Positions 24,401-64,000 of a stretch of DNA of 64,000 nucleotides are shown here, piece by piece. Location of the stretch: contig CAYLMU010000003.1 in NCBI GenBank assembly GCA_964385105.1, positions 2,470-66,469 of the forward strand, given 5' to 3'. Under the pieces are notes generated by a model. It did not search any database and was not told where the DNA came from. It saw only the letters and a program-made list of their open reading frames with translations. The first letter of the stretch is position 1, and every line of letters begins with the position of its first letter. This DNA is from an uncultured Candidatus Saccharibacteria bacterium. GTDB lineage: Bacteria > Patescibacteriota > WWE3 > UBA101185 > UBA10185. Both the position numbers and the translations under genes were made by a program.

Positions 24401-25417
24401 TCACTCTAAAATCACCTCTTCAACACCGTAATCTCCTGTTGCATATACATGTAATATTGAAAATCTTGGACGTTGTAAGTTTCTTTGTGTAGCTACAGAA
24501 CCAACGACGTGGTGTGTTAGGCTATTTCGCACCGGATCCTTGTTTTCACTTGATTTGTGGTGGTCAGCCGCAAAAATAGCCTCTACCTTAGAGTCCCTAA
24601 CCGCCTCTAACAATACTTCAGCCTGTGATTTTACTTTTTTGTCAATTTTTCCGTCAAAAACACCCATTACTCTCGGGTTAACCGGATGATAAATAGGTTG
24701 AGACATTATTACAAAATCCGACTTTTTAATGTTACTTAGCTGCCAGTTTAAGGATTCTTCACTTATTGGAGTAAAGTTTGCGCTGTTGTCTAATAACAAA
24801 AAGGTTTTGCCTTGTACTTCAAACATTGAATTTGTTTCACCAAAAACTTGTATAAAATTGTCAGCTCCTACTGAATCAGCTAAATCATGATCACCGGGAA
24901 TTATATACCACTCAACGCTTGCACTGTTTAAAACCGATTTTGCAGCTTCCAGGCTTTTTATATCTCCCCATGCCGTGGCATCCCCCATATGCACAATATA
25001 ATCAACACCGGCTTCTTCAGCTTTGTTTATTGCTTTTTCCAACATATCGTTTTCATCACCTGAATCAGCAATTAACGCAACAGAAAACAATCTTTCGGAC
25101 TTTCGGTCTGAAGAAGTCTTTTCAGTTTGAACAGCTGCAACCTGCGGCAGTTCTTTATTTTGTTGTGAATTAATTTTGGTGTGTGCAAGCCGTTCTACAA
25201 ACTCACCGGCAACTACTCCTGCCGCATCCCCACTAAATCCTAATTTATTAAGAACCGGGGATGTATATTTTGATACAGCTATGGAATTAAAACTTGACAT
25301 CTGTTTAACCAACAAAGCTATAGCTATAACAAATGCACTTAAAATAACAATAGAAAATAAAGACCTAAACAGCCTTCCAAAAAGTCCGCGTTTTTTTTCT
25401 CTGCCTCTTTTTTGCAT
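24401..25417 (-). CDS. Membrane-anchored calcineurin-like metallophosphoesterase.
   Basis: N-terminal TM. Metallophosphatase motifs DYIVHMGDATAWGD, GDHDL, ADHH. Confidence 0.7.
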   Translation of the reverse strand: MQKRGREKKRGLFGRLFRSLFSIVILSAFVIAIALLVKQMSSFNSIAVSKYTSPVLNKLGFSGDAAGVVAGEFVERLAHTKINSQQNKELPQVAAVQTEKTSSDRKSERLFSVALIADSGDENDMLEKAINKAEEAGVDYIVHMGDATAWGDIKSLEAAKSVLNSASVEWYIIPGDHDLADSVGADNFIQVFGETNSMFEVQGKTFLLLDNSANFTPISEESLNWQLSNIKKSDFVIMSQPIYHPVNPRVMGVFDGKIDKKVKSQAEVLLEAVRDSKVEAIFAADHHKSSENKDPVRNSLTHHVVGSVATQRNLQRPRFSILHVYATGDYGVEEVILE

Positions 25418-27396: not shown

Positions 27397-28365
27397 TTAC
27401 TCAAAGCTAAATCTAATTGTTCCTTGTTGGTCGGTTCTTAAAACCTCAATTTTTCTACTTTTAAAATACATAAGTACTTCTTCACTCGGGTGTCCATAAC
27501 TGTTATTTCCAACACTTATCACAGCTCTTTTTATATCAAGCGCATCAATAAAAGCTTTGTTCAATCCATCTTTAGCCCCTTGATGAGATACTTTATAAAT
27601 ATCTAAGCCATTTTCTACTTTGCTAGTGATTGACTTGGTATCAATTTTTTGTAATATGTCTGATTCGGCATCACCAGTTAAAAGTACTTCGGTATCATCA
27701 TAATCAACCAACAAAACTACAGATAAATTATTTGGATTTTTGATGCTGTTTTTTTGCCTCTCATCATTTAGAAATTCACCTGAGGGCCATAAAATAATAA
27801 ATTCTACGCCGTCCAGAAGTAAACTTCCTTGTTCTATTGTTGCTTGACGCACATTCTTATTTTCAAGCAAATTTTTGAAATCATTATAAGCCCTACTCTT
27901 AAACGTCACATCATTGTGCAAAACCATACCAACCCTGCAGCGTTCCAATACTCTCAAAAGCCCAAACACATGATCTTTGTGCGGATGTGTTAATACAACA
28001 ACATCGAGATTACATTTTTGCAATGGCTTTAACTTATACAAAAAATAATCTATGTCATAACTTGAACCTCCATCTATTAGAACAGTTTTATTATTTGGCG
28101 TCTTCACATATATAGCGTCACCCTGACCTACATTAAAAAAAATAACATCCAAACTCCCTGAATCACTAATACCACCGTAAACCTGTTTAATAATCAAAAA
28201 AAGATAAAAAATAAAAATTAGATTAATGAACTTTCGTAAACTCATTTTTCTTAAGCAAGCGGGGAACTGCCATAGCCATAAAATAATAAAACCAAATGAA
28301 TTGTATGCTCGGTTTAAAAATAATATTTGAATAGGGAAATGTTGAAAAGAAATAGCAGACCTCAA
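27397..28365 (-). CDS. comEC: ComEC/Rec2 C-terminal part (metallo-beta-lactamase domain). Appears as a separate ORF overlapping the upstream ComEC membrane part by ~140 nt in another frame.
   Basis: MBL motifs VVVLTHPHKDHVFGL, GDAIYVKTP..TVLIDGG, VSHQG. The real start is probably the internal Met of MSLRKFINLIFIF (TM) if the gene is truly separate. Confidence 0.7.
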   Translation of the reverse strand: MRSAISFQHFPIQILFLNRAYNSFGFIILWLWQFPACLRKMSLRKFINLIFIFYLFLIIKQVYGGISDSGSLDVIFFNVGQGDAIYVKTPNNKTVLIDGGSSYDIDYFLYKLKPLQKCNLDVVVLTHPHKDHVFGLLRVLERCRVGMVLHNDVTFKSRAYNDFKNLLENKNVRQATIEQGSLLLDGVEFIILWPSGEFLNDERQKNSIKNPNNLSVVLLVDYDDTEVLLTGDAESDILQKIDTKSITSKVENGLDIYKVSHQGAKDGLNKAFIDALDIKRAVISVGNNSYGHPSEEVLMYFKSRKIEVLRTDQQGTIRFSFE

Positions 28366-29263
28366 TAAAAATATCCAATGGAACCATAATTATGTACGAA
28401 AATACTTGCCCCAAATAAACATTTAAAAACGACGCCACCAGGTATAGGCCTCCAACCACTGTAGATAACGGAATTAACCATAATACCAATGAATTAACCA
28501 GGGGACTTATTATACTAACCCTTTCAAAATGATATGCAATCAGTGGCCAAACCAATACCTGTGCTGCCAATGTAGAAATTAGGTCGGAAAAAAGAGCGTT
28601 TTTGCTTTTGAATAAACCACTAAATAGATCAGCAAACATAATTAAACCCAATGCGGCTAAAAAACTTAGTTGAAAGCTTAAACTATATAAATAAGTAGGA
28701 TTTATTGACACCATGACAAAACCTGAAAACAATAATATTTGCGTTACATCAATCTTTCGCCCATAAAATGTGCCTAAGCATACAATAGACCCCATAATCC
28801 AGGCTCTAACGACCGGAGGGTCAAATCCTGAAATTACCGCATAAACAAGTGTTGCGGTTAATGCAATCAATAAATTTCTATAGCTGTATTTTTTACCGAT
28901 AATTCGGTATACAAAAGCAAAAACAAGATTAATATTGTAACCGGAAACAACGATTACATGAACCGTCCCAACATCTCGAACGACGTCGTTAAACGTAGGA
29001 GTGTTATTTATGTCATTTATACCTAGTAAAACTCCCCCCAATAATTCGCTATGCGGACTAGGCAAATTTTGCTTTATTTTTTTATTTGAAAGCTCTCGAA
29101 ATTTTAAAACCTTATCTTCAATACCCAAAAATGACCTACCCCTCTCCTCAGACTGCTCAACTACTTCGGTACACTTCCATATGAAATAACTTTGACAATA
29201 GTTTGTTACTCTTAAATACGTTATTGTTGCAAACAAAAGGTACAATATATGACCCCTATGCAT
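28223..29263 (-). CDS. comEC: ComEC/Rec2 membrane 'Competence' domain part.
   Basis: LLGGVLLGINDIN...VRDVGTVHVIVVSGYNINLV matches the ComEC competence-domain signature. Multiple TM helices. Overlaps the next ORF (MBL part); possible frameshift. Confidence 0.65.
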   Translation of the reverse strand: MHRGHILYLLFATITYLRVTNYCQSYFIWKCTEVVEQSEERGRSFLGIEDKVLKFRELSNKKIKQNLPSPHSELLGGVLLGINDINNTPTFNDVVRDVGTVHVIVVSGYNINLVFAFVYRIIGKKYSYRNLLIALTATLVYAVISGFDPPVVRAWIMGSIVCLGTFYGRKIDVTQILLFSGFVMVSINPTYLYSLSFQLSFLAALGLIMFADLFSGLFKSKNALFSDLISTLAAQVLVWPLIAYHFERVSIISPLVNSLVLWLIPLSTVVGGLYLVASFLNVYLGQVFSYIIMVPLDIFIEVCYFFSTFPYSNIIFKPSIQFIWFYYFMAMAVPRLLKKNEFTKVH

Positions 29264-30030
29264 TAAAATCCTAAAGAACTTTCGATTTTTTTAAGCGTAC
29301 TCTCCGGAATCTTAGTTTTGCTAATTAATTCGGCCAAATTTGTATAGGGTCGATTCTCGATTATTTTTTGAGCATAAACCTTACCTATACCTTTTAAACT
29401 TTCAAGTTCCGTTTGCGACGCCGTATTAACATTTATTTTTGATAAATCCGATACTTCCGACTCATCAGATGCTGCTGATGAAGGCACTCCATTTAAATCT
29501 ATTGAATCCGGCTCAAAATTATTATTTACCGCTGTACTCTCTTGAACAGGTATACTTGCAACCAAAGAACGCTTGTTTTCTAAGTCATGTTCAAACGGAA
29601 TATAAACCTTTTGACTGTCTGTCAAAACCTGTGCCAAGTTTAATTGTCTACTCACCCACTCTTCTGAAGATTCATTTAACACATCACCACCCAATACTAA
29701 AAGATCAGCAACTCTTGCACCCTCATGTAATTTATAAATACCCGGACGTTCGATTGCTCCTGCTAAATCAACATATATAAAACTATCCTCTGTTTCATCA
29801 TTATTTGAAACAGTGATGTTGGTGTCTGAACTATTTTGGAGGTTATAGAAAATTAAATATAAAGTAACTGAAGCAACAATCAATATAAATAAAATTATGC
29901 TGAATTTCTCTTTGATTATGGACAATATTTGGATTATTAACTGACTGTGTTCTGAACTCATACCCGAAGTGTAATGCCACTCTAAAAAAAATTGAAGAGT
30001 GCTTTGTCTATTTTTAATAGATATTTGCAA
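29263..30030 (-). CDS. comEA: ComEA-like DNA receptor (N-terminal TM, SLBB-like region, C-terminal tandem helix-hairpin-helix).
   Basis: C-terminus INVNTASQTELESLKGIGKVYAQKIIENRPYTNLAELISKTKIPESTLKKI is a typical ComEA HhH motif. Confidence 0.75.
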   Translation of the reverse strand: MQISIKNRQSTLQFFLEWHYTSGMSSEHSQLIIQILSIIKEKFSIILFILIVASVTLYLIFYNLQNSSDTNITVSNNDETEDSFIYVDLAGAIERPGIYKLHEGARVADLLVLGGDVLNESSEEWVSRQLNLAQVLTDSQKVYIPFEHDLENKRSLVASIPVQESTAVNNNFEPDSIDLNGVPSSAASDESEVSDLSKINVNTASQTELESLKGIGKVYAQKIIENRPYTNLAELISKTKIPESTLKKIESSLGF

Positions 30031-30222: not shown

Positions 30223-30546
30223 TTATTTAGTCTTCTCTTCTTCAACTGCTTCTAACAGTGCTTCTCTAAAAAATTCATTCTTTTGTAAATCTTTAAGCAC
30301 CTTAACAATTTTGGCTTTATTCAAGTCATAGTAAACCTGTCTTCCTTTTTTATTATTCTTTAAAAGTCCTAGTGAAAATAGAACTCTTAAGTGATGAGAA
30401 GCTAAATTCTCCTCTACATTTAAGTGGTCAGCCACAGTACTTACGTTTTTTGGACCATCGCTAAGCATTTTTAAAATTTTGACTCTATTTTGATCGGAAA
30501 AAGCTTTTGAAAGCTTTAACATGTTTGCCATGCCTACAATATACAA
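30223..30546 (-). CDS. ArsR/SmtB-family winged-helix transcriptional regulator.
   Basis: VKILKMLSDGPKNVSTVADHLNVEENLASHHLRVLFSLGLLKNNKKGRQVYYDL. Confidence 0.75.
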   Translation of the reverse strand: MYIVGMANMLKLSKAFSDQNRVKILKMLSDGPKNVSTVADHLNVEENLASHHLRVLFSLGLLKNNKKGRQVYYDLNKAKIVKVLKDLQKNEFFREALLEAVEEEKTK

Positions 30547-30573: not shown

Positions 30574-32109
30574 TTAACGACTATATTGAAGTGCTTCTGC
30601 TATATGTTCACTACTTATATGAGGTGAAGATTCCAAATCAGCAATGGTGCGAGCAACTTTAATTACTTTAAAATAAGCTCGTGCAGACAATACTAAGCTT
30701 TTTGTAGCTTGTGTCATTAATTGTCTACTTTCCAAATCTAATTTGCAATATTTGTCAATATGAATCTTTTTCATTTTAGAGTTGCATTTTATTACATCAT
30801 TCTTAAATCGTTGATTTTGTATCTCACGAGCTTTTATAATACTCGCTTTTATTTTAGTATGACTAAACTTTGAGTTTAATATTTGTGAGGTTAATCTCTG
30901 TGAAGAGTTAAGATCCTCAATGTCTACCGGTTTGACGTTGATTTTTATGTCAATTCTGTCCAATATGGGACCAGAAATTTTAGACTTGTATTTTTGTATC
31001 TGTTGCGGTGTGCATGTACACTTTTTCATATGATGTGTATGGTACCCGCACGGACACGGGTTAGATGCTGCCAGCAAAGTAAAATCTGCCGGAAATATAA
31101 ATGTGCCCTTCTTTCGTGTAATTACACATATATCTTCTTCAAGCGGCTGTCTCAAAGATTCAATTACTTGCCTATTAAACTCAGGAAATTCATCAAGAAA
31201 TAACACACCTTTGTGAGCCAAACTAATCTCACCCGGTATAGGATTATTACCTCCACCAATCATTCCTGCATATGAAGTTGTATGATGCGGAGATCTATAC
31301 GGTGGCACTTTTATCATGTTATCACCCTGTTTAATCGTTCCTGTTATTGCATGTATTTTAGTGACATTGAAAGAATCCTCTAAATCCAAATTTGGTAATA
31401 ATCCGGAATATGTATGCGATAGCAATGTCTTACCAGCTCCGGGAGGTCCTTCAAAATGCATATTATGCCTACCTGCAGCTGATATTAAAATAGCACGTTT
31501 AGCGTCATCTTGTCCTATAATATCATCTAACGTACCCCTATAATTGTTCTCCATACTGTTCTTAATACTGTCGCTATTTGTTAGCTTTTTGACTGACATT
31601 ATACCTGTTTGTAAAAATTCTAGCACTTCATTTAAATGGCTAAACCCCAAAACAGATACTTGTTCTCTACTTTCTATATTAATAGCATTGACGTCAGATA
31701 TTATTACATTTTTGTAACCATGTAAATATGCGTACATGCATGCTAAAAATGCTTTATTTGAATATTTAATTGTTCCATCCAGTGAAAGCTCTCCAAGCAT
31801 TAATGTATCACTTGGAATTTGTAAATTTGACATAAGTGAAATAATACCTATGGCAATCGGTAAATCATAAAAAGATCCATCTTTTGGTAAATCAGCGGGT
31901 GCTAAGTTCACAAGTATCTTTTTGCCTGATATTGTAATCCCTATGTTTCTTAACGCTGTTGAAATTCGTTCCTTACTTTCTGATATTTCCTTACCCGGAA
32001 GTCCAATAATATCAAATCCCGGAAAACCTCTGCCAGAAATATTTACTTCAACCGTTACCAAAACTAAATCTAAGCCATAAGAAGTAACAGAATAAGTTTT
32101 AGTTAACAT
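30574..32109 (-). CDS. comM: YifB/ComM-family Mg-chelatase-like AAA+ ATPase.
   Basis: N-terminal Lon-like ChlI domain. Walker A GPPGAGKTLL. C-terminal Mg_chelatase_C-like region. Confidence 0.85.
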   Translation of the reverse strand: MLTKTYSVTSYGLDLVLVTVEVNISGRGFPGFDIIGLPGKEISESKERISTALRNIGITISGKKILVNLAPADLPKDGSFYDLPIAIGIISLMSNLQIPSDTLMLGELSLDGTIKYSNKAFLACMYAYLHGYKNVIISDVNAINIESREQVSVLGFSHLNEVLEFLQTGIMSVKKLTNSDSIKNSMENNYRGTLDDIIGQDDAKRAILISAAGRHNMHFEGPPGAGKTLLSHTYSGLLPNLDLEDSFNVTKIHAITGTIKQGDNMIKVPPYRSPHHTTSYAGMIGGGNNPIPGEISLAHKGVLFLDEFPEFNRQVIESLRQPLEEDICVITRKKGTFIFPADFTLLAASNPCPCGYHTHHMKKCTCTPQQIQKYKSKISGPILDRIDIKINVKPVDIEDLNSSQRLTSQILNSKFSHTKIKASIIKAREIQNQRFKNDVIKCNSKMKKIHIDKYCKLDLESRQLMTQATKSLVLSARAYFKVIKVARTIADLESSPHISSEHIAEALQYSR

Positions 32110-32959
32110 AGTACGAACCTTCTGAATCAGATACTATCCCCTTAACTAATAGGTGTGTGATTGCAGCATTTAGCCTGCCAATTTCCATATCACATATATT
32201 TATTATTTCATTCTTTGTCATTACTTTATTTTTGATTTTTGAATAAACTATTTGCTCATCTGTAGACAAAAGTGTCATATTAATACTTTCGTTTTTCTTT
32301 TTGTTCTTTATGCCATAAAACGTCAATATATCACTTGCATCGGTTACAACTGTTGCCCCCTCTTTTAATAAGGTATTGCTTCCCAGTGACATCCTTGAAT
32401 CAATGTTGCCTGGAATCGCAAAAAGTTTTCTACCAAATTTCTTAGCGTATTCTGCAGTAATCATTGAACCGCTATTATTCTCGGCTTCCACAATTAACAC
32501 ACCTTTACATAATCCCGCAACAATCTCATTTCTCTTGCTAAACATCCATTTTTGCGGTTTTGCCTTATCTTCATACTCTGACATAATGATGCCGCCGGAA
32601 TCCAATATAGAGTAATAAAGATTTTCTTGATATGCTGGTGTTATAAAATTAATTCCACAAGGCATAACAGCAATCGTTTTTCCTCCAGCTTCTATGCAAG
32701 AACTATGTGCTGTAGCATCTACCCCAAACATAAAGCCCGAAACAACCGAGATACCATTATCAGCAAGTTGGGGAACTAATTTCCTCACTAATCTTTCACC
32801 GTAATTTGTCATCCTTCTACTTCCTACAACTGCCAAACAGTTATCAAAAATTTTGCCATCAAAGCTTTTATATTTCACGAATAGTTTTTTTGAGGATGAA
32901 TAAATTGAACCTAGTAAAGGTGATACTTCTTTAACATCCATTTGACTAATGTGATACAT
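32099..32959 (-). CDS. dprA: DNA-processing protein DprA (Smf).
   Basis: VVSGFMFGVDATAHSSCIEAGGKTIAVMPCGINFITPAYQENLYYSILDSGGIIMSEY is the DprA Rossmann-fold signature. Overlaps comM by 11 nt. Confidence 0.85.
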   Translation of the reverse strand: MYHISQMDVKEVSPLLGSIYSSSKKLFVKYKSFDGKIFDNCLAVVGSRRMTNYGERLVRKLVPQLADNGISVVSGFMFGVDATAHSSCIEAGGKTIAVMPCGINFITPAYQENLYYSILDSGGIIMSEYEDKAKPQKWMFSKRNEIVAGLCKGVLIVEAENNSGSMITAEYAKKFGRKLFAIPGNIDSRMSLGSNTLLKEGATVVTDASDILTFYGIKNKKKNESINMTLLSTDEQIVYSKIKNKVMTKNEIINICDMEIGRLNAAITHLLVKGIVSDSEGSYYVN

Positions 32960-55120: not shown

Positions 55121-55237
<117 letters not shown>

Positions 55238-55380
55238 ATTACCTACCAGTATTTAAATTTCAAAAAGTACTCAATTTGTGAGCAAAAGCGATGGACCCAG
55301 TAAACCCGAAATGGGCAACCGGACCCTCGATTTTGCTCACAAAAGAACTACGCTCTGACAAGACGTAGTATGCTGATAAA

Positions 55381-55425
55381 GAAAAACAATCTGCAGGCCT
55401 GAAAGGCCGAAGCCGTTTTTCGTAT
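55381..55425. repeat. 45-nt structured repeat, copy A, in the 23S-5S spacer (gaaaaacaatctgcaggcctgaaaggccgaagccgtttttcgtat).
   Basis: 44/45 identical to 58943-58987. Outer 7-bp stem GAAAAAC/GTTTTTC enclosing GGCCTTCGGCC-type inner hairpins. Confidence 0.7.
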
Positions 55426-55932
55426 CAGCATACGAAGCTGTACTCTAAAAACTGAACAAAACTTTGATTAAGCCCAATTACTAAAAGTCTTAATTTAAAG
55501 ATGCGCACACATTAGTACTGCTTAGCTAAACACATTACTGTGCGTACACTTGCAGCCTATCAACCTGGTAATCTCCCAGGAGGTACGTCCGATAAATCGG
55601 AAGAATTCTAATCTTGGGATGGGCTTCGTGCTTAGATGCTTTCAGCACTTATCCCGACCGAACGTAGCTACCCAGCGATGCCACTGGCGTGACAACTGGA
55701 ACACTAGAGGTTCGTCCGCTCCGGTCCTCTCGTACTAGGAACAGCCTCCCTCAGAATTCATACGCTCGTTGTGGAAAGAGACCGAACTGTCTTACGACGT
55801 TCTGAACCCATCTAACGCGCCTCTTTAATGGGCGAACAGCCCAACCCTTGGAACCTGCTTCAGCTCCAGGATGAGACGAGACGACATCGAGGTGCCAAAC
55901 ACCGCCGCCGCTATGAACGCTCGAGCGGTATT

Positions 55933-55965
<33 letters not shown>

Positions 55966-56456
55966 AAGTTCCGAGCTTACCATAAAGCATTCGGAAGATC
56001 ATTAAGACCTACTTTCGTAACTGCGCGACTTGTGTGTCTTGCAGTAAAGCTCCCATATACCTTTACGCTTACAGCGCCATTTCCATCGGCGCTAAGGGAA
56101 CCTTTGTGCTCCTGCGTTACTTTTTAGCAGGAAACCGCCCCAGTTAAACTGCCCATCAAGCATTGTCCTCGTACCCGATAAGGGCACACAGTAAGACTCA
56201 TAATATTAGAAGAGAGGTGTTACATTGGCGACTAGCTCACCTAAGCGAGCTAATCTCCCTCCTACGCTATACAACTAATATCACTTGTCAATGCCAGACT
56301 ACAGTAAAGCTCCACGGGGTCTATTTGTCCAACAACGAGTAACCGGCATCTTCACCGGTAGTTCAATTTCACCGAGTCCGTGATTAAGAGAGTGCTCAAG
56401 TCGTTACGCCTTTCGTGCGGGCCGGAACTTACCCGGCAAGGGATTACGCTTGTTAA

Positions 56457-57184
56457 TTCTTCATCTATATTAAATAGACTTTGAGTAACCTTCCCAGTGT
56501 TACTCCTGCATGTCGCCATGCAGACGCCACTATATCTTCATGCACTAGCATGTTTGGCGTATAGTGTGTGAGGATTCAAGAAACTTTGGAGTAACCTTAC
56601 GATTCATAAGACTACATAATAATGCAATCTCATGTATACCGTTAAAATTAAGGTGTTTCCTTTGTTCAATCAATTCCATAATTTCGCAGAATAATTGAAA
56701 ATCATTTTGCTTACTTGTTCTTAATTTGTGTGCCCTAAAAAAAGGTACTATTTTTGAATTAAGATCTGTAATGGATCTCACACAATAGCGATAAAGGTCT
56801 TCGTTGTGATTATCAAACCTTCTGTTTAAATATACTTTTCCACATCCAAAAAAGTTTTGGAAAATGTAAAGAACATTTTTACTCTTTGCTGATTGTGTGA
56901 CTATGAACTCTGGAAATACCTGCCAACCGGTTTTGCTCGTGGAGTTTTTTAGTATGCTTACTGTAAAAGCACCCTCCCCATCTACAAACCCAATTATCCA
57001 ACCAATGGTTTCTTGTCTTTCCTGCTGATTGTCCGCACTTGCTGCATTTTCACTCAACACATCCGAATATTATCCGAACATGTTAAGTAGCACAAGATTC
57101 TTTATTCTACTTTTAATAGACACTACCTTTTTTAGGTAGACGGAGTTTCCAGCATATAGCCAAATTTTACTATGGCGGCGCGAT
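56457..57184 (-). mobile_element. Group I-type intron in 23S rRNA (insertion near the E. coli 1917-1923 region, helix 69-71 area) carrying a homing-endonuclease ORF. Boundaries approximate.
   Basis: 23S exon homology (…ACGGCAGCAGTAACTATAACTGTTCTA) stops at ~57190 and resumes at ~56456 (CGTAATCCCTTGCCGGGTAAGTTCC…). An intervening ~730 nt contains a LAGLIDADG ORF. Confidence 0.6.
56545..57060 (-). CDS. LAGLIDADG-family homing endonuclease (single-motif type) encoded within the 23S intron.
   Basis: IGWIIGFVDGEGAF matches the LAGLIDADG motif. 171 aa, typical for homodimeric I-CreI-like enzymes. Confidence 0.8.
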   Translation of the reverse strand: MLSENAASADNQQERQETIGWIIGFVDGEGAFTVSILKNSTSKTGWQVFPEFIVTQSAKSKNVLYIFQNFFGCGKVYLNRRFDNHNEDLYRYCVRSITDLNSKIVPFFRAHKLRTSKQNDFQLFCEIMELIEQRKHLNFNGIHEIALLCSLMNRKVTPKFLESSHTIRQTC

Positions 57185-58033
57185 TCACCATAGAACAGTT
57201 ATAGTTACTGCTGCCGTTCACCCGAGCTTCGACCAAAAGCTCATTCACAATTGCACAAGTGCAAAAGTAAGATCACCTCCAGCTTTAACTTACGGGCACT
57301 GGGCAGGCGTCGGCCCCTATACATCCCCTTACGGGTTTAGCAGAGACCTGTGTTTTTGATAAACAGTCGCTTGAACCATTTTTGTGCCCCCTACGTATCT
57401 CTACGCAGGGCATCCTTTTCCCTAAGTTACGGATGTAATTTGCCTAGTTCCTCGATCACGGTTCTCTCGTTCGCCTTGGTATTCTCTACCTGTCTACCTG
57501 TGTCGGATTGCGGTACGGATATCATAGGATCTCCCTAGAAGATTTTCTTGGAAGCTTAACGCAGCTAAATCAGCGGTATTACCCGCTTTTCCACCGGCTC
57601 GTATAAACGCCTGTGCGGATTTGCCTACACAGACTGACTTGCCTTCTGGACTGGAATCCTTAACCAGCCTAGCCTATCAAACTCCGTCCCTCCATTGGTA
57701 ATAATGATCAAATGATAGTGCAGGAATATTAACCTGCTGTCCATCGGTTACGCCCTTCGGCCTCACCTTAGGACCGACTTACCCTCCGTTGACTGACATA
57801 GCGGAGGAAACCTTAGACTTCCGGCGGGGTGGGTTTTCACCACCCTCTCGTTACTCATGCCCACATTCTCACTTGATGCCGCTCCAGCATACCTCACGAT
57901 ACACCTTCAGTGCAGACATCAATGCTCCCCTACCATCCATTAAAATCTAAAAGAAATTAATGAATCCACAGCTTCGGTTCTTTGCTTTAGCCCCGTTAAA
58001 TCATCGGCGCGAAACCGTTGAACTAGTGAGCTG

Positions 58034-58076
<43 letters not shown>

Positions 58077-58645
58077 AGCTGTCTAAACAGTTTCACTTCC
58101 TTACCCACTAAGCAAAGATTAGGGACCTTATCTGATGGTCCGGGTTGTTTCCCTCTCGTACCAGGAACTTGCTCCCTAGTACTGACTCCTAAGTTGAAGA
58201 TTTGCGCATTCGGAGTTTGGTAAGAATGGGTACGCTTGCGCGCCCCAATTCTTTTCAGTATCTCTACCTCACAAATCCATAATAACTTAGGGCTATACCT
58301 AAATATATTTCGGGGAGAGCCAGCTATCGCCGAGTTCGATAAGCGTTTCACCTCTTACCACAAGTCATCCCAGCATTTTTCCGCATACACGGGTTCGGTC
58401 CTCCGCCTGTCTTTCGACAGGTTTCAACCTGCTCATGGTAAGCTCACTCGGCTTCGGGTCTAATAACATATACTAAAGCGCCCTTTTAAGACTCGCTTTC
58501 GCTGCGTCTACACAACTGAGTTGCTTAAACTTGCATATGTTATTAACTCGCGGGCTCATTCTTCAATAGGCACAACATCACACCACAAGGGTGCTCTGTC
58601 AGCTTGTTTGCATACGGTTTCAGGTTCTATTTCACTCCCCTAACA

Positions 58646-58677
<32 letters not shown>

Positions 58678-58942
58678 TGTTCACTATCGGTGTCCTCATG
58701 TATTTAGCCTTAGCTGATGGTCCAGCTGTATTCACACAGGGTTTCACGTGCCCCATGCTACTCTGGATAAACCCAAGAAGGCATTTTTGTTTCGAATACA
58801 GGGCTATTACCTGCTATGGCGCAGCTTTCCAGCTGGCTTCTTCTACAAAAATACTTTTTTACTTCTTTGTCATTCAAGATGACGTAGGGCTTTCCTAACC
58901 CCCTAATCTTAAAACTTTGTTTCAAAATATTTGTGCAATTAA

Positions 58943-58987
58943 GAAAAACAATCTGCAGGCCTAAAAGGCCGAAGCCGTTTTTCGTAT
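58943..58987. repeat. 45-nt structured repeat, copy B, inside the 23S rRNA domain I (candidate intervening sequence/expansion).
   Basis: gaaaaacaatctgcaggcctaaaaggccgaagccgtttttcgtat. Lies after the GAGTAGCGGCGAGCGAAAAGG...AGCCCAAACC block, where E. coli has no corresponding sequence. Confidence 0.7.
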
Positions 58988-59512
58988 TGCAAAATTTTTA
59001 AGACTTGGGTTTGGGCTCATTCCTTTTCGCTCGCCGCTACTCAGGAAATACCTAATGGTATCTTTTCCTCCAGTTACTAAGTTGTTTCAGTTCACTGGGT
59101 ACCCATCTATGCACCTATGTTCGCCCGAAGGCAAATTTCAGCACATGATCACCTCATATTACTATGGATGGAGTTTCCTCATTCGGAGATTCCCGGTTAA
59201 TAGCGCTTCTTGTCAGCTCACCGAGACTTAACGCAGACTTGCACGTCCTTCATCGGCACAAGGACCCAAGGCATCCACCGTATGCATTAGTATCTTTAAT
59301 ATCAAGACGAATTGAACTTAAATCTAGTTTTGTTCAGTTTTCAAAGTACATGCTACGTTTTACATTTTCAAAAACTGTCCTCGGGCATAGCCCTGCGGAT
59401 TGTTTTTTCAAATTGTAAAACTTCGCCACAATTAAGTGACTTGTTGGCAATTCGTCGCTTTCGCTCCTATTGCACATCAATTCACTAAACTCACTTCATT
59501 CGTTAAGTGACT

Positions 59513-59589
59513 TGGTGGACCCGGCGGGATTCGAACCCGCGACCCCTGCAGTGCAAATGCAGTGCTCTAGCCAACTGAGCTACAGGCCC
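59513..59589 (-). tRNA. tRNA-Ala(UGC) with encoded CCA, immediately upstream of the 23S rRNA.
   Basis: Reverse complement GGGCCTGTAGCTCAGTTGGCTAGAGCACTGCATTTGCACTGCAGGGGTCGCGGGTTCGAATCCCGCCGGGTCCACCA. G3:U70 present. Anticodon loop UUUGCAC gives UGC. Confidence 0.8.
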
Positions 59590-59872
59590 AGAATAATAAG
59601 TAAAATCGTATTCCAATATTACTTAGTTAGGGCCTCCCAGTCAACCGGCCAAAAGGTCCATAATATATTATTTTTCAGTTTGTTCAGAGCTTCTGTCGCA
59701 ATGACATTAAATCCTTTCGGATGGAAGTTGTATAGTAAGTGTGTGTAGATTAGCATTGTGAATATTTTGTGTCAAGGGTTATAGCTAAATTGTATATGAC
59801 CGGGTTTAAGTTATAATCTCAATAAAAAAAGCGGCATCAAGAAAAGTAAATTCTTATACCGCTTTTGTTTGC

Positions 59873-60382
59873 TTAACTTAGGTAGCTTAGTAATAAAACT
59901 ATCAATACAAGTGTCAAAGATAGCTTAATTACAATTGGTTTAATCTCCATGTTTTCTAACTTTCCCCTCAGTGTTATTGTCACTTCACCGGTTAAAGGTA
60001 ATACTTCAATAACTGCTTCCTTGACACCTGTGAGTATTCCTTTAACACCATTGCTATCAATCCTCACAGGAATTTGTATCACATCTTGCCTATTTTGCTC
60101 CAAACCATAAATGTACTTTGGATACTCTCCCGAATCATCCCTGTACACTCCGTTATTTTGAGCTATGGCATAAGCTCTTTTCCATAACTCAGTCTTTGAA
60201 ATCTTCCGGAACTTAGGTAATGGAAACTTTACTGCAAACGGTGCCTCGGTGAACGCAATGTGAGTATCGTATGCTGAAGTCACTCTATTTTTTTCAAAAT
60301 GCTTGAGTAGCCATTGTGCAGCCACTTCTACCTCGTCAGCAGTCGGTTCATCCCACAAAGAGATTTTCTTTTTAGATGACAT
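59873..60382 (-). CDS. Hypothetical C-terminally tail-anchored membrane protein (169 aa), paralog of the adjacent 273-aa gene.
   Basis: WDEPTADEVEVAAQWLLKHF...LWKRAY...YIYGLE...IPVRIDSNGVKGILTG...KLE aligns with the downstream paralog. C-terminal TM IVIKLSLTLVLIVLLLSYL. Confidence 0.55.
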   Translation of the reverse strand: MSSKKKISLWDEPTADEVEVAAQWLLKHFEKNRVTSAYDTHIAFTEAPFAVKFPLPKFRKISKTELWKRAYAIAQNNGVYRDDSGEYPKYIYGLEQNRQDVIQIPVRIDSNGVKGILTGVKEAVIEVLPLTGEVTITLRGKLENMEIKPIVIKLSLTLVLIVLLLSYLS

Positions 60383-60515
60383 CTGTTGTCTTACTCCTTT
60401 TATTGTTTATTAGAATAAAACACATTTTAAATAGTATTTCAACCTATAGAAAAAATGAATAAAAAAGCGACTGTAACCATGCAATAATTTGCATTGGTCA
60501 AGCCGCTTTTGTACT

Positions 60516-61337
60516 TTATGCGAGCAAATATAGTAAAACCACTATAATCCCAAGAATTCCAAGAGGAATTGAAATTTTTACGGTTTTACTAACTGCATCT
60601 TCAAGCTTCGCCCTAATCCTGATGAAGACCGTTGCCTCTCCAGTTAAGCGGTCAATTTCCACATCCATTTTGGGCTCACCTGTAAGCCTCAATGTTCCCT
60701 TAATTCCTTGTTCGTCCACGTTGAGAGGAATATTTAACACGTGAAAAGCACCAGCAGTTGATGCGATTGAATCATCATTAACTTTCGATCCCTCTAACAC
60801 ATAAGAATCATATTTACCGATCTTTCTGATAACAACGCCTTGCTTTTCAGCTCCTTGAATTACCTTTTTCCACAAAGGTCTGTATACAATCTTCGCAGAT
60901 CGAGGGAGTGGCCTTGCAATTTCTGATTTTAAAAGCATTCTATGAGTAGTTTGAACCCGTACATTACCCTTATTACTCACCACATGTGCAACAAGCCAAT
61001 CAACAACCTTTCTAACCTGCTCAGGCGTGGGATTATCCCAGTCTGCTATCATAGCATGTCTTCTTTGTACCTCTGCATGTGCCTTAGAAGTCCAAAGACC
61101 CTTTAGTTTAGGATCATAAATAAAACCAAACTCCGGAGCATGTTTTTTGAGAGCATCTCGAAACTTATCAAGCGAGGGGGGCACTGAGGTGGATCTATCG
61201 TGCTTTACGGCCCATGAACGTGCATTTTCTAAAGGGAAAGGCTTTTCGTTTTGAAGATTATATCTTTCCACATTTAATACTGCTTGTCTATAAAAGTTTC
61301 TCACAAAATCGTCCAGTGCAGCATTACTCATTCCCAT
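60516..61337 (-). CDS. Hypothetical C-terminally tail-anchored membrane protein (273 aa), paralog of 59873-60382 with an extra N-terminal ~100 aa.
   Basis: WDNPTPEQVRKVVDWLVAHV...LWKKVI...YVLE...IPLNVDEQGIKGTLRLTG...KLE. C-terminal TM ISIPLGILGIIVVLLYLLA. Confidence 0.55.
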   Translation of the reverse strand: MGMSNAALDDFVRNFYRQAVLNVERYNLQNEKPFPLENARSWAVKHDRSTSVPPSLDKFRDALKKHAPEFGFIYDPKLKGLWTSKAHAEVQRRHAMIADWDNPTPEQVRKVVDWLVAHVVSNKGNVRVQTTHRMLLKSEIARPLPRSAKIVYRPLWKKVIQGAEKQGVVIRKIGKYDSYVLEGSKVNDDSIASTAGAFHVLNIPLNVDEQGIKGTLRLTGEPKMDVEIDRLTGEATVFIRIRAKLEDAVSKTVKISIPLGILGIIVVLLYLLA

Positions 61338-61519
61338 CTCTTACCTTCCTTTTTTATTCGATTATCAATTTAAAAACATTTTACAAAAAAATAAAATAAA
61401 AACAAGCTATAGGGCATAAAAGTATATAAATTTCATTTGTACATCAATCCATACAGCCACATACAAAAAAAGAGCTGATAACCATGCACATCAAATGCAA
61501 AAGTCATCAGCTCAATTTG

Positions 61520-61789
61520 CTAATCTCCCGCCAAGGGAAGTTCTGCCGGCTCATCACAGGGTTCATCACAAGGCACCTTTTCGGATGAAATTACTACAAT
61601 TCTGTACTCAATACCATTAAGCTCAATTTGCTTTTCTTCAACTAACTGTCGTAAAGCTTCGTCGAGCTCCTTGTCGCTCATGTCGTTTGCAAGGGTCAAT
61701 GGCAATAAATCGACTCGCGTAGTTGGACTCCTGCCTAGGCGGGCAACTAAAATATGTTTAAACTCTTCGAAATCGGGAAACATGCTCAA
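61520..61789 (-). CDS. Small acidic hypothetical protein (89 aa) with a C-terminal CDEPCDEP motif.
   Basis: ORF with its own hairpin terminator (61455-61500). No recognisable motif. Confidence 0.4.
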   Translation of the reverse strand: MSMFPDFEEFKHILVARLGRSPTTRVDLLPLTLANDMSDKELDEALRQLVEEKQIELNGIEYRIVVISSEKVPCDEPCDEPAELPLAGD

Positions 61790-61934
61790 CTCCTTTACTA
61801 GATTAGGGGCTTATAAAGTTGTAATTATTTTATCGGCATGTACTCAAATTATCAAATTGATTCTAAACATTGCATGTTGATAATACAGTCTCCAAAGGTA
61901 CAAATTTTCTTAAAGAGTTGTAACTACAATAAAT

Positions 61935-62861
61935 CTAAAAAAGTGACATCTGGTTATCATTAACCTCAACACTCTTCCCCTCATCCGGCCCGTTATAATC
62001 AGTAAAACCAAGCCTCTTAATCAAACTTTTAAACCTGTATTTTTCAAGCACTTTTTTTACTTCACCCGCGTTATAGTCGCTGTAATAACATTCATTTAAA
62101 TTCACATCCATTGGAACATCCCTTATTATAGTTGCAAGCTTTTTGCTCATTATTGCTTCTTCATAATTATTCAAAAGTTTTTCTTTTAGCTTTACCGGAT
62201 GGATTTGGTCGATGTTATTATAAATTCCTTCAACGCTTCCATACACCTCAATTAAATTTTTTGCTGTTTTATCTCCAATTCCGTAAACTCCGGGTATGTT
62301 ATCACTTGGATCACCTCTCAATGCTTTGTATTCAACCAACAATTCCGGATTAAACCCAAGTCTTGCTTCAGCTTCCCTCATACCCACCAAATCAGCAGAG
62401 CCTTTAGTTGAAGGTATCATTATCAAAACTTTATCATTTATCAACTGCCACAAGTCTTTGTCATTTGACGCAATTATTACTTCAATATCTTCATCTTTGG
62501 TTTTTTCAACCATTGTTCCAATAATGTCATCTGCCTCATACCCGTCAACAGTTAAAGATTTAACACCAAAAGCATCTATAACTTCAAAAATTTTTGGAAT
62601 TTGTTGCGAAAGGTCATCTTCCATTGGCCTGCGATGTGCTTTGTAACCGGTAAAGTCCTCAACTCTAAAAGTAGGTTTTTTACTATCTAAAGCAGCCACG
62701 GCATAATCAGGCTTTAAAGTTTGAAAAATGCTAATTAGCATTGATGTTGTGCCGTATATTGCATTTGTAGGGTTACCGTCGCTATCAGTTAAAGTTTTGG
62801 GTAAAGCAAAGTAAGCTCGGTGTAAAAAGTTAAATGTGTCTATAAGCAGAAGTTTTTTCAT
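61935..62861 (-). CDS. 5'-3' exonuclease (FEN-like; Pol I N-terminal-domain homolog).
   Basis: LLLIDTFNFLHRAYFA...AALDSKKPTFR...GYKAHR...GYEADDIIGT...GIGDKTA (H3TH) are typical 53EXO motifs. Confidence 0.8.
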   Translation of the reverse strand: MKKLLLIDTFNFLHRAYFALPKTLTDSDGNPTNAIYGTTSMLISIFQTLKPDYAVAALDSKKPTFRVEDFTGYKAHRRPMEDDLSQQIPKIFEVIDAFGVKSLTVDGYEADDIIGTMVEKTKDEDIEVIIASNDKDLWQLINDKVLIMIPSTKGSADLVGMREAEARLGFNPELLVEYKALRGDPSDNIPGVYGIGDKTAKNLIEVYGSVEGIYNNIDQIHPVKLKEKLLNNYEEAIMSKKLATIIRDVPMDVNLNECYYSDYNAGEVKKVLEKYRFKSLIKRLGFTDYNGPDEGKSVEVNDNQMSLF

Positions 62862-62887
62862 TAGTAATGTAGCATAATTAATGTAGC

Positions 62888-64000
62888 TTACGACTCCATG
62901 AGTTCGGCAAATTCACCTCCGTCGATTGTTTCTTTATCAAGTAAAACCATTGCAACCTGGTCAAGCTTATCTTTATTATCCTGCAAAAGCTTTCTTGCCA
63001 AATCATACTGTTTTTCAATAATATCTTCTACTTCGGCATCAATTTTTGCTGCTACTTCCTGGCTCACAACGTGTGCCTCGCCCATTTGTTTGGCAAGCCA
63101 ATGTCTTTCTTCATCACCACCCAAGTTAATCGGCCCAAGTGAACTCATTCCCCACTCAGTAACCATTTTTCTTGCAATGTTGGTTGCTTTTTCAAAATCA
63201 TTTGCAGCACCGGTAGTTATTTCATTAAATACAACTTCTTCAGCAACTCTTCCGCCCATTATCATTGCAATCATAGCTAATAATCTTGTTTTACTTTCAT
63301 TGTACCTGTCTCTTTCAGGAGGCAAACTTGTATGACCTAAAGAGCCGCCTCTTGGAACAATAGTCACTCTACCCACAGGGTCTAAACTTCCAACTAAAGC
63401 TCCAACAATTGCGTGTCCAGCTTCGTGGTATGCAGCAAGTTTTCTGTCATTTTCATCTTGAAGGCGCTTTCTTTCAGGCCCCATGGTTACTTTAAGAGCT
63501 GCATTATCAATGTCTCTCATGGTAATTGTTTTTCTGTCCTCTCTTGCAGCATAAATGGCAGACTCGTTTAAAACGTTTTCAATGTCGGCTCCGCTAAACC
63601 CAACTGTCTTTTTTGCAACTTTTTCTAAATCAAAGTCTTCAGCAAACGGTTTTCCCTTCATGTGAATTTGAATTATCTCTTTTCTGCCCTCAAGATCAGG
63701 CATCGGAATAGTTACTTTTCTATCAAACCTTCCCGCCCTAACCAAAGCCGGATCAAGCATATCAGGCCTGTTTGTGGCAGCAATCACAATTACATTAGTT
63801 CTTTCGTCAAAACCATCCATTTCAATTAAAATCTGGTTTAAGGTTTGTTCTCTTTCATCATGACCTCCACCGATTCCCATACCTCTTTGTCTACCAATAG
63901 CATCAATTTCGTCTATAAAAATAAGTGCGGGTTGTGCTGTTTTTGCCATTTTAAATAAATCCCTCACTCTGCTTGAACCCACACCAACAAGCATCTCCAT
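62888..64000 (-). CDS. ftsH: ATP-dependent zinc metalloprotease FtsH (C-terminal ~370 aa; N-terminus beyond window end).
   Basis: AAA+ second region of homology (…ATNRPDMLDPALVRAGRFDR…), protease HEAGHA zinc motif, and C-terminal helical domain. The ORF is open to the window edge. Confidence 0.9.
   Translation of the reverse strand: MEMLVGVGSSRVRDLFKMAKTAQPALIFIDEIDAIGRQRGMGIGGGHDEREQTLNQILIEMDGFDERTNVIVIAATNRPDMLDPALVRAGRFDRKVTIPMPDLEGRKEIIQIHMKGKPFAEDFDLEKVAKKTVGFSGADIENVLNESAIYAAREDRKTITMRDIDNAALKVTMGPERKRLQDENDRKLAAYHEAGHAIVGALVGSLDPVGRVTIVPRGGSLGHTSLPPERDRYNESKTRLLAMIAMIMGGRVAEEVVFNEITTGAANDFEKATNIARKMVTEWGMSSLGPINLGGDEERHWLAKQMGEAHVVSQEVAAKIDAEVEDIIEKQYDLARKLLQDNKDKLDQVAMVLLDKETIDGGEFAELMES

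Follow-up and report, generated by a model that had tools for sequence, protein, structure and literature searches.

The comEC gene in the analysed DNA (the window, a stretch of 64,000 nucleotides) is, with high confidence, genuinely two genes, the outcome of an ancient split. The upstream gene encodes the channel and the downstream gene the nuclease, and the two products would act together as one ComEC. Comparison with relatives shows that the split is at least as old as the divergence of lineages that today share only 35-60% identity, and that split comEC is common in Patescibacteria, being the normal, conserved arrangement in this lineage.

A channel gene and a nuclease gene with a 23-nt overlap

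The features of the locus, all on the minus strand, are as follows.

27397..28245, minus strand: ComEC-type nuclease gene (ORF2, 282 aa from ATG 28245), with an N-terminal membrane anchor and a metallo-beta-lactamase (MBL) domain
27970..27987, minus strand: HxHxDH metal-binding motif of ORF2, H87-P-H89-K-D91-H92, placed by the alignment of MBL homologues
28168..28239, minus strand: N-terminal helix of ORF2 (residues 3-26), the TM11 equivalent, from the AF2 model (helix 3-26) and the profile alignment at ComEC residues 510-530
28223..28245, minus strand: overlap of ORF1 and ORF2, 23 nt, from the ORF2 ATG (28245-28243) to the ORF1 TAA (28225-28223), read from the sequence
28223..29263, minus strand: comEC channel gene (ORF1, 346 aa), with an N-terminal helix, a short helical segment containing C23 and C31, and the Competence domain
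29263..30030, minus strand: comEA (DNA receptor; SLBB and helix-hairpin-helix), HHH_3 E 8.5e-13, SLBB match, TIGR01259; the coordinates are those of the longest ORF, and the true start may be internal
30223..30546, minus strand: ArsR-family HTH regulator, between comM and comEA, HTH_5 E 2.9e-11
30574..32109, minus strand: comM (Mg-chelatase-like AAA+ protein), Mg_chelatase E 4.8e-82, with ChlI and Mg_chelatase_C matches
32099..32959, minus strand: dprA (recombination mediator), PF02481 E 1.5e-59

An earlier, sequence-only reading had described two ORFs in different frames, overlapping by about 140 nt. Both ORFs are indeed present on the minus strand, at 28223-29263 and, in the longest reading of ORF2, at 27397-28365 (322 aa from TTG), and they do overlap. 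The figure of about 140 nt, however, comes from over-extension of ORF2 to its furthest-upstream TTG, at 28365, and the real overlap is 23 nt (28223-28245), beginning with the ATG at 28245, from which ORF2 runs in the +1 frame relative to ORF1. Over the long overlap the coding frame is that of ORF1, because three observations agree. The Competence match extends to ORF1 residue 333 (nt 28265); Y326 and Y327, which lie in the ORF1 frame inside the long overlap, are conserved across the channel family in the alignment; and all 30 aligned MBL homologues share an N-terminus made up of a Met, some basic residues and a single hydrophobic helix, which aligns with the ATG at 28245. The internal start proposed earlier (MSLRKF...) is thus the right one.

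The stop-free stretch upstream of this ATG is 48 codons long and is not beyond chance: among the 42 gene-like ORFs of the window, 9% of the +1-frame codons lie in runs of at least 48 codons. In relatives the matching stretch measures from 0 to 147 nt. We detected no Shine-Dalgarno motif before the ORF2 ATG, which is no evidence against its translation, since only 13 of 42 window genes have one. The 23-nt overlap is a likely site of translational coupling.

ORF1 has the Competence domain of ComEC/Rec2, matching PF03772 over residues 89-333 (E 2.2e-46) and TIGR00360 (E 7.6e-25). Its AF2 model (pLDDT 88.6, pTM 0.85) is all-helical, with one N-terminal helix and two short helices ahead of the conserved core, which is preceded by about 65 residues; a pair of cysteines just past the first helix, C23 and C31, is invariant or nearly so in the channel family. 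No profile match to the OB fold (DUF4131, PF13567) was obtained in ORF1 and none is seen in its model, and the OB region is a gap in the alignment of ORF1 to fused Chloroflexota proteins. The OB fold is optional among ComEC proteins (PMC6299819). A fold search with the ORF1 model gave no match at E <= 0.001 in a PDB set reaching to April 2026, which apparently predates the full-length ComEC entries.

ORF2 matches Lactamase_B (PF00753; E 1.3e-15), and its AF2 model (pLDDT 94.7) consists of the helix at residues 3-26, a short linker and an MBL sandwich. As seen from a Foldseek search, the top PDB match of this model is the ComEC beta-lactamase-like domain itself (9ic4; E 1.9e-24, TM 0.76/0.81, 32% identity), the second-best match being weaker by 9 orders of magnitude. 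The helix, a hydrophobic counterpart of which is found in 30/30 aligned homologues, would anchor the nuclease in the membrane. H87, D91, H92, D192, H221 and H252 are invariant across the 30 MBL homologues, and the window protein also has H89, so that the metal-binding motifs (HxHxDH and the downstream His/Asp ligands) are intact. The HxHxDH of ORF2 corresponds to the H-X-D/H-X-D-H carried by the characterized ComEC nuclease domain (PMC12455585). Metal-dependent nuclease activity needed for transformation has been shown solely for B. subtilis and Moorella, whose ComECs are fused (PMC12455585, PMC8579336), and from its residues ORF2 is a putative nuclease of the same kind.

On the model of full-length ComEC/Rec2 (TIGR00361), ORF1 covers positions 147-410 and ORF2 positions 438-663, with 66.8 and 95.7 bits, respectively. 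Both scores are below the 190-bit cut-off, each ORF covering its own part only; since these parts are successive, the two are co-linear pieces of one canonical protein. The same order was obtained with the ComEC of Neomoorella carbonis, a protein of 801 aa with solved structures (PDB 30bt/30bu/32ks), to which the family profile of ORF1 aligns at residues 210-491 (E 6e-23) and that of ORF2 at residues 510-793 (E 3.5e-66). In the solved protein a short cytoplasmic helix (CH1) lies between TM10 and TM11, both of which are peripheral, TM11 being mobile, and the nuclease domain starts at residue 532 (PMC13539106). The cut is thereby placed by alignment in the short cytoplasmic TM10-TM11 segment, with ORF1 ending past the TM10 equivalent and ORF2 comprising the TM11 equivalent and the nuclease. 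The break falls in the same loop in the alignment to the Chloroflexota fusions. Because this segment is cytoplasmic, both halves would keep the membrane topology of the fused protein. Lys and Arg make up 24% of the last 15 channel residues and 19% of the first 8 MBL residues, versus 9% overall, an enrichment at both ends that by the positive-inside rule fits a cytoplasmic junction. The MBL nuclease is thus found not on the channel polypeptide but in a separate overlapping gene in another frame.

The two-gene layout among relatives

The best 120 homologues of ORF1 are all proteins of 237-400 aa with the Competence domain only, and the best 120 homologues of ORF2 are all stand-alone MBL proteins of 251-337 aa. 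To these searches we added a survey of 80 further loci from species-representative genomes, in which every stop-to-stop ORF was scored with HMMs of both families. In 67 of the resulting 85 loci, a number that includes the window itself and one record fetched three times, an MBL ORF lies downstream of the Competence ORF on the same strand, within about 200 nt in 64 cases and after gaps of 182-913 nt in the other three. The readable junctions (n=64) comprise overlaps of 1-34 nt and gaps of 0-204 nt, and frame offsets of 0, 1 and 2 all occur; the commonest overlaps are 4 nt (15 loci), 11 nt (11), 14 nt (11) and 8 nt (5). The sequence-only reading had proposed to compare orthologues and had called a split arrangement unusual. 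The comparison identifies a genuine split, and the two-gene layout proves to be the rule among these Patescibacteria.

Five of the 85 loci scored as fused. Two of these, the Patescibacteria loci L039 and L054, stay open only because stretches of N, which translate to X, lie at the junction or close to it. This leaves three genuine fusions, all of them Chloroflexota proteins (777-880 aa), which have the OB-fold region. No MBL ORF was found downstream in 13 of the 85 loci, six of which are cut off by the end of the contig and two of which have under 750 nt of sequence remaining; the other five are related loci in which about 3.7 kb or more of sequence holds none.

The closest relative (locus L001, 60% identity) has an identical 23-nt overlap in a diverged nucleotide sequence. 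Three relatives (49-60% identity) share the gene order dprA-comM-arsR-comEA-Competence-MBL-argS-metallophosphoesterase-ndk, with junctions called in their records as a 41-nt overlap, a 19-nt gap and a 4-nt overlap. A Levybacteria genome is split too (comEA-Competence-MBL, with a 2-nt gap), and on a contig labelled Cloacimonetes the channel gene retains DUF4131 while the MBL domain again has its own gene. A complete Nealsonbacteria genome has a stand-alone MBL gene that adjoins no Competence gene.

These observations bear on the two other explanations that had been offered beside a genuine split, an assembly frameshift and a recent inactivation, and the orthologues refute both. In favour of a sequencing or assembly error of one nucleotide that falsely splits a fused comEC, the junction region is AT-rich and contains homopolymers, a run of five A (28245-28249) sits exactly at the ORF2 ATG, and removal of one A from this run joins the frames (...LLKKMSLRKF...). 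With the run in this position, a 1-nt indel could not be dismissed on the evidence of the sequence, but comparison with relatives rules it out, leaving the artefact a negligible probability. Fused proteins are absent (0/120) among the nearest homologues of either ORF, and the 67 loci that repeat the two-gene layout were assembled independently and show many geometries, some having gaps that contain stop codons. Junctions so varied, in all three frames, cannot be explained by one indel. Moreover, the closest relative keeps the overlap despite its divergence, and the start of ORF2 coincides with that of every family member. No more credible is a frameshifted pseudogene with loss of DNA uptake, an idea in keeping with the overlap of the two frames and with the accumulation of pseudogenes in reduced genomes. 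Both ORFs, however, are full length for their families and keep every invariant residue, the MBL metal ligands included; their family-HMM scores (466 and 359 bits) are as good as those of relatives; and the split is shared by lineages that have long since diverged.

Programmed ribosomal frameshifting or stop-codon readthrough could in principle still yield a fused ComEC from the two ORFs, given that these overlap, that ORF2 lies in the +1 frame and that the junction includes a stretch rich in A. Nevertheless, we consider this explanation highly improbable, as the relatives show all three frame offsets and gaps up to 204 nt, so that no single recoding mechanism is conserved. A canonical slippery heptamer that would move ribosomes into the +1 frame is absent from the junction, and ORF2 has a conserved start and an N-terminal anchor of its own.

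Joint action of the channel and the nuclease

The surrounding cluster had been described as comEA, comM and dprA, an assignment that the domain matches listed above bear out. The stop codon of comEA overlaps the start of ORF1 (TAATG), and comEA is also directly upstream of the Competence gene in loci L001, L002, L004, L085 and L087; the ArsR-family gene holds the same position in L001, L002 and L004. Since stop and start codons overlap both between comEA and the channel gene (TAATG) and between the channel gene and the nuclease gene (the 23-nt overlap), the string comEA-comEC-mbl is probably co-transcribed and translationally coupled.

The upstream product would be a membrane channel made of the N-terminal helix and the Competence domain, equivalent to TM4-TM10 and without an OB fold, and the downstream product a TM11-like helix followed by an extracytoplasmic MBL domain. 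We suggest that channel and anchored nuclease assemble in the membrane as subunits and function as canonical ComEC does. In this scheme double-stranded DNA would be handed over by ComEA. Its non-transforming strand would be broken down outside the membrane by the MBL subunit, while the remaining strand would enter the cell through the channel subunit and reach DprA and ComM. Physical assembly, coupling, nuclease activity and competence itself are predictions. Joint function of channel and nuclease is further supported by the co-variation of their distance matrices: pairwise distances of both proteins correlate with a Mantel r of 0.79 (36 pairs), a value reached in 0 of 2000 permutations.

The only live rival accepts two separate genes and gives the MBL protein a role apart from the channel, for instance as a surface nuclease that scavenges nucleotides for an organism that cannot synthesize them, its link to comEC being merely historical. 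The unlinked MBL gene of the Nealsonbacteria genome and the five related loci with no MBL gene downstream speak for such independence, as do the peripheral position and mobility of TM11 in the solved structure (PMC13539106). ComEC-based nucleotide scavenging has moreover been proposed for these bacteria, according to a citation in PMC10633639. The weak point of reading the pair as one machine is that ORF1 is without the OB fold, which in canonical ComEC binds DNA, holds in place a nuclease domain that is otherwise mobile, and raises the activity of that domain (PMC12455585, PMC13539106). We speculate that ComEA, which stimulates ComEC nuclease activity in vitro (PMC13539106), may supply DNA binding in place of the OB fold. 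Against an independent nuclease stand the position of the MBL gene downstream in most loci, often with a 4-nt overlap of the ATGA type, and the co-evolution of the channel and MBL genes. The closest relative of the MBL protein, by sequence and by fold, is specifically the ComEC nuclease domain together with the preceding helix, and in Southlakia epibionticum the com genes are dispensable for growth, which argues against scavenging there (PMC10633639). We therefore hold an independent nuclease to be improbable, and take the pair to be one split ComEC.

Implications and comparison with known systems

In the open-access literature we found no paper that describes a split ComEC, or that presents its nuclease domain as a conserved partner with a gene of its own. 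Domain variation of ComEC, including Competence-only proteins, has already been catalogued (PMC6299819), and databases list the pair as two genes. The result means that the competence cluster of this genome is to be read as intact, and that the pair should be annotated neither as a frameshift or pseudogene nor, in its second gene, as a generic 'MBL fold metallo-hydrolase'. It also amounts to a natural experiment on where ComEC can be cut, namely in the cytoplasmic TM10-TM11 segment, with both halves conserved over the long term.

Silale et al. posed as a question the fate of the non-transforming strand in ComECs without a nuclease domain (PMC8579336). Our analysis bears on this question: in many Patescibacteria at least, the nuclease domain was never lost but simply resides in a gene of its own, which would go unnoticed in surveys that score domains protein by protein. 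About half of bacterial ComECs are scored as nuclease-less, and many of these may likewise have a ComEC-type membrane-anchored MBL in trans, adjacent or unlinked, though we think a generalization of this breadth rather unlikely. If true, it would explain how such organisms degrade the non-transforming strand, and the core mechanism would require neither an OB fold nor a covalent link between channel and nuclease.

Canonical ComEC/Rec2, as known from B. subtilis and N. carbonis (PDB 32ks/30bu/30bt), shares with the window proteins the Competence channel, the MBL nuclease with HxHxDH, the order of channel, one membrane helix and nuclease, the location of the nuclease outside the cell, and comEA as a neighbour. 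In contrast to that single protein of about 800 aa, the window has two polypeptides of 346 and 282 aa, cut in the cytoplasmic TM10-TM11 segment, and has neither the OB fold (DUF4131) nor two of the three N-terminal helices. Taken alone, ORF1, whose polypeptide carries neither DUF4131 nor Lactamase_B, would score as one of the Competence-only (C-profile) ComECs of Pimentel & Zhang 2018, a survey in which domains were scored per protein and the words 'split' and 'separate' are absent (PMC6299819). It differs from these in that the nuclease is not lost but encoded by the next gene.

The ComEC of the Saccharibacterium S. epibionticum (SEML1_0777), deletion of which abolished transformation (PMC10633639), is likewise a Patescibacterial ComEC without a fused MBL domain. 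It is, however, a protein of 482 aa with DUF4131 and Competence, and its gene is followed by YebC rather than by an MBL gene. S. epibionticum is the only Patescibacterium experimentally shown to be transformable, and its different ComEC gives no support for the split form. A precedent for a separate nuclease working with ComEC is instead provided by EndA of Streptococcus pneumoniae, which degrades the non-transforming strand in trans (PMC8579336). Like the ORF2 product, EndA is a nuclease with its own gene and a membrane anchor, and it acts on the outer membrane face next to the ComEC channel (PMC8579336). In contrast, EndA lacks an MBL fold and did not arise from ComEC, whereas the window protein corresponds to the ComEC nuclease domain itself.

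Ribosomal RNA genes

55492-59300, minus strand, 23S rRNA (Rfam model)
56545-57060, 171-aa ORF within the 23S rRNA insertion, match to LAGLIDADG_1 (E 6.5e-24)
59516-59589, tRNA gene near the 23S rRNA

The 23S rRNA of the window is 3809 nt long, against 2925 nt for the Rfam model, and therefore carries an insertion of ~880 nt. The ORF with the LAGLIDADG_1 match inside this gene is probably an intron-encoded homing endonuclease. The 5S and 23S rRNA genes lie side by side, and no 16S rRNA gene was found after the 23S-5S genes and the tRNA as far as the window end (region 55122-64000). Since the region beyond the rRNA and tRNA genes, up to position 64000, is occupied by protein-coding ORFs instead, the 16S gene appears to be unlinked from 23S-5S.

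Genes near the comEC-mbl block

24401-25417, calcineurin-like metallophosphoesterase, shortly downstream of the comEC-mbl(-argS) block
30223-30546, ArsR-family regulator, between comM and comEA

A calcineurin-like metallophosphoesterase was seen downstream of comEC-mbl(-argS) again in three related loci (L001, L004 and L087), in the last of which it stands immediately after the MBL gene. This proximity may reflect a functional link, or conserved synteny only. The position of the ArsR-family regulator between comM and comEA is common to the window and three relatives, and the regulator is a candidate for control of the competence genes.

The channel and nuclease proteins

In the channel protein (ORF1), a pair of cysteines, C23 and C31 (window 29171-29197), directly follows the first helix. 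Each is kept in at least 90% of the aligned ORF1 relatives, and C31 is likewise conserved in the paired alignment of 26 concatenated channel and nuclease sequences. The pair stands at the place of the OB fold in canonical ComEC, and for this reason the two cysteines may be joined by an extracytoplasmic disulfide or may bind a metal.

The split comEC arrangement was also observed in two MAGs labelled 'uncultured Gammaproteobacteria' (L062 and L067), one of the loci being on a 1.57-Mb contig; either these labels are wrong, or the split reaches beyond Patescibacteria.

In the three fused Chloroflexota ComECs (L073, L076 and L077) the MBL motif THPHxDH is replaced by degenerate versions ('TRADADR', 'TALDSSH'), and other ligands are also missing from their nuclease domains, which may be catalytically dead. 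The split Patescibacteria nuclease domains, in contrast, are intact.
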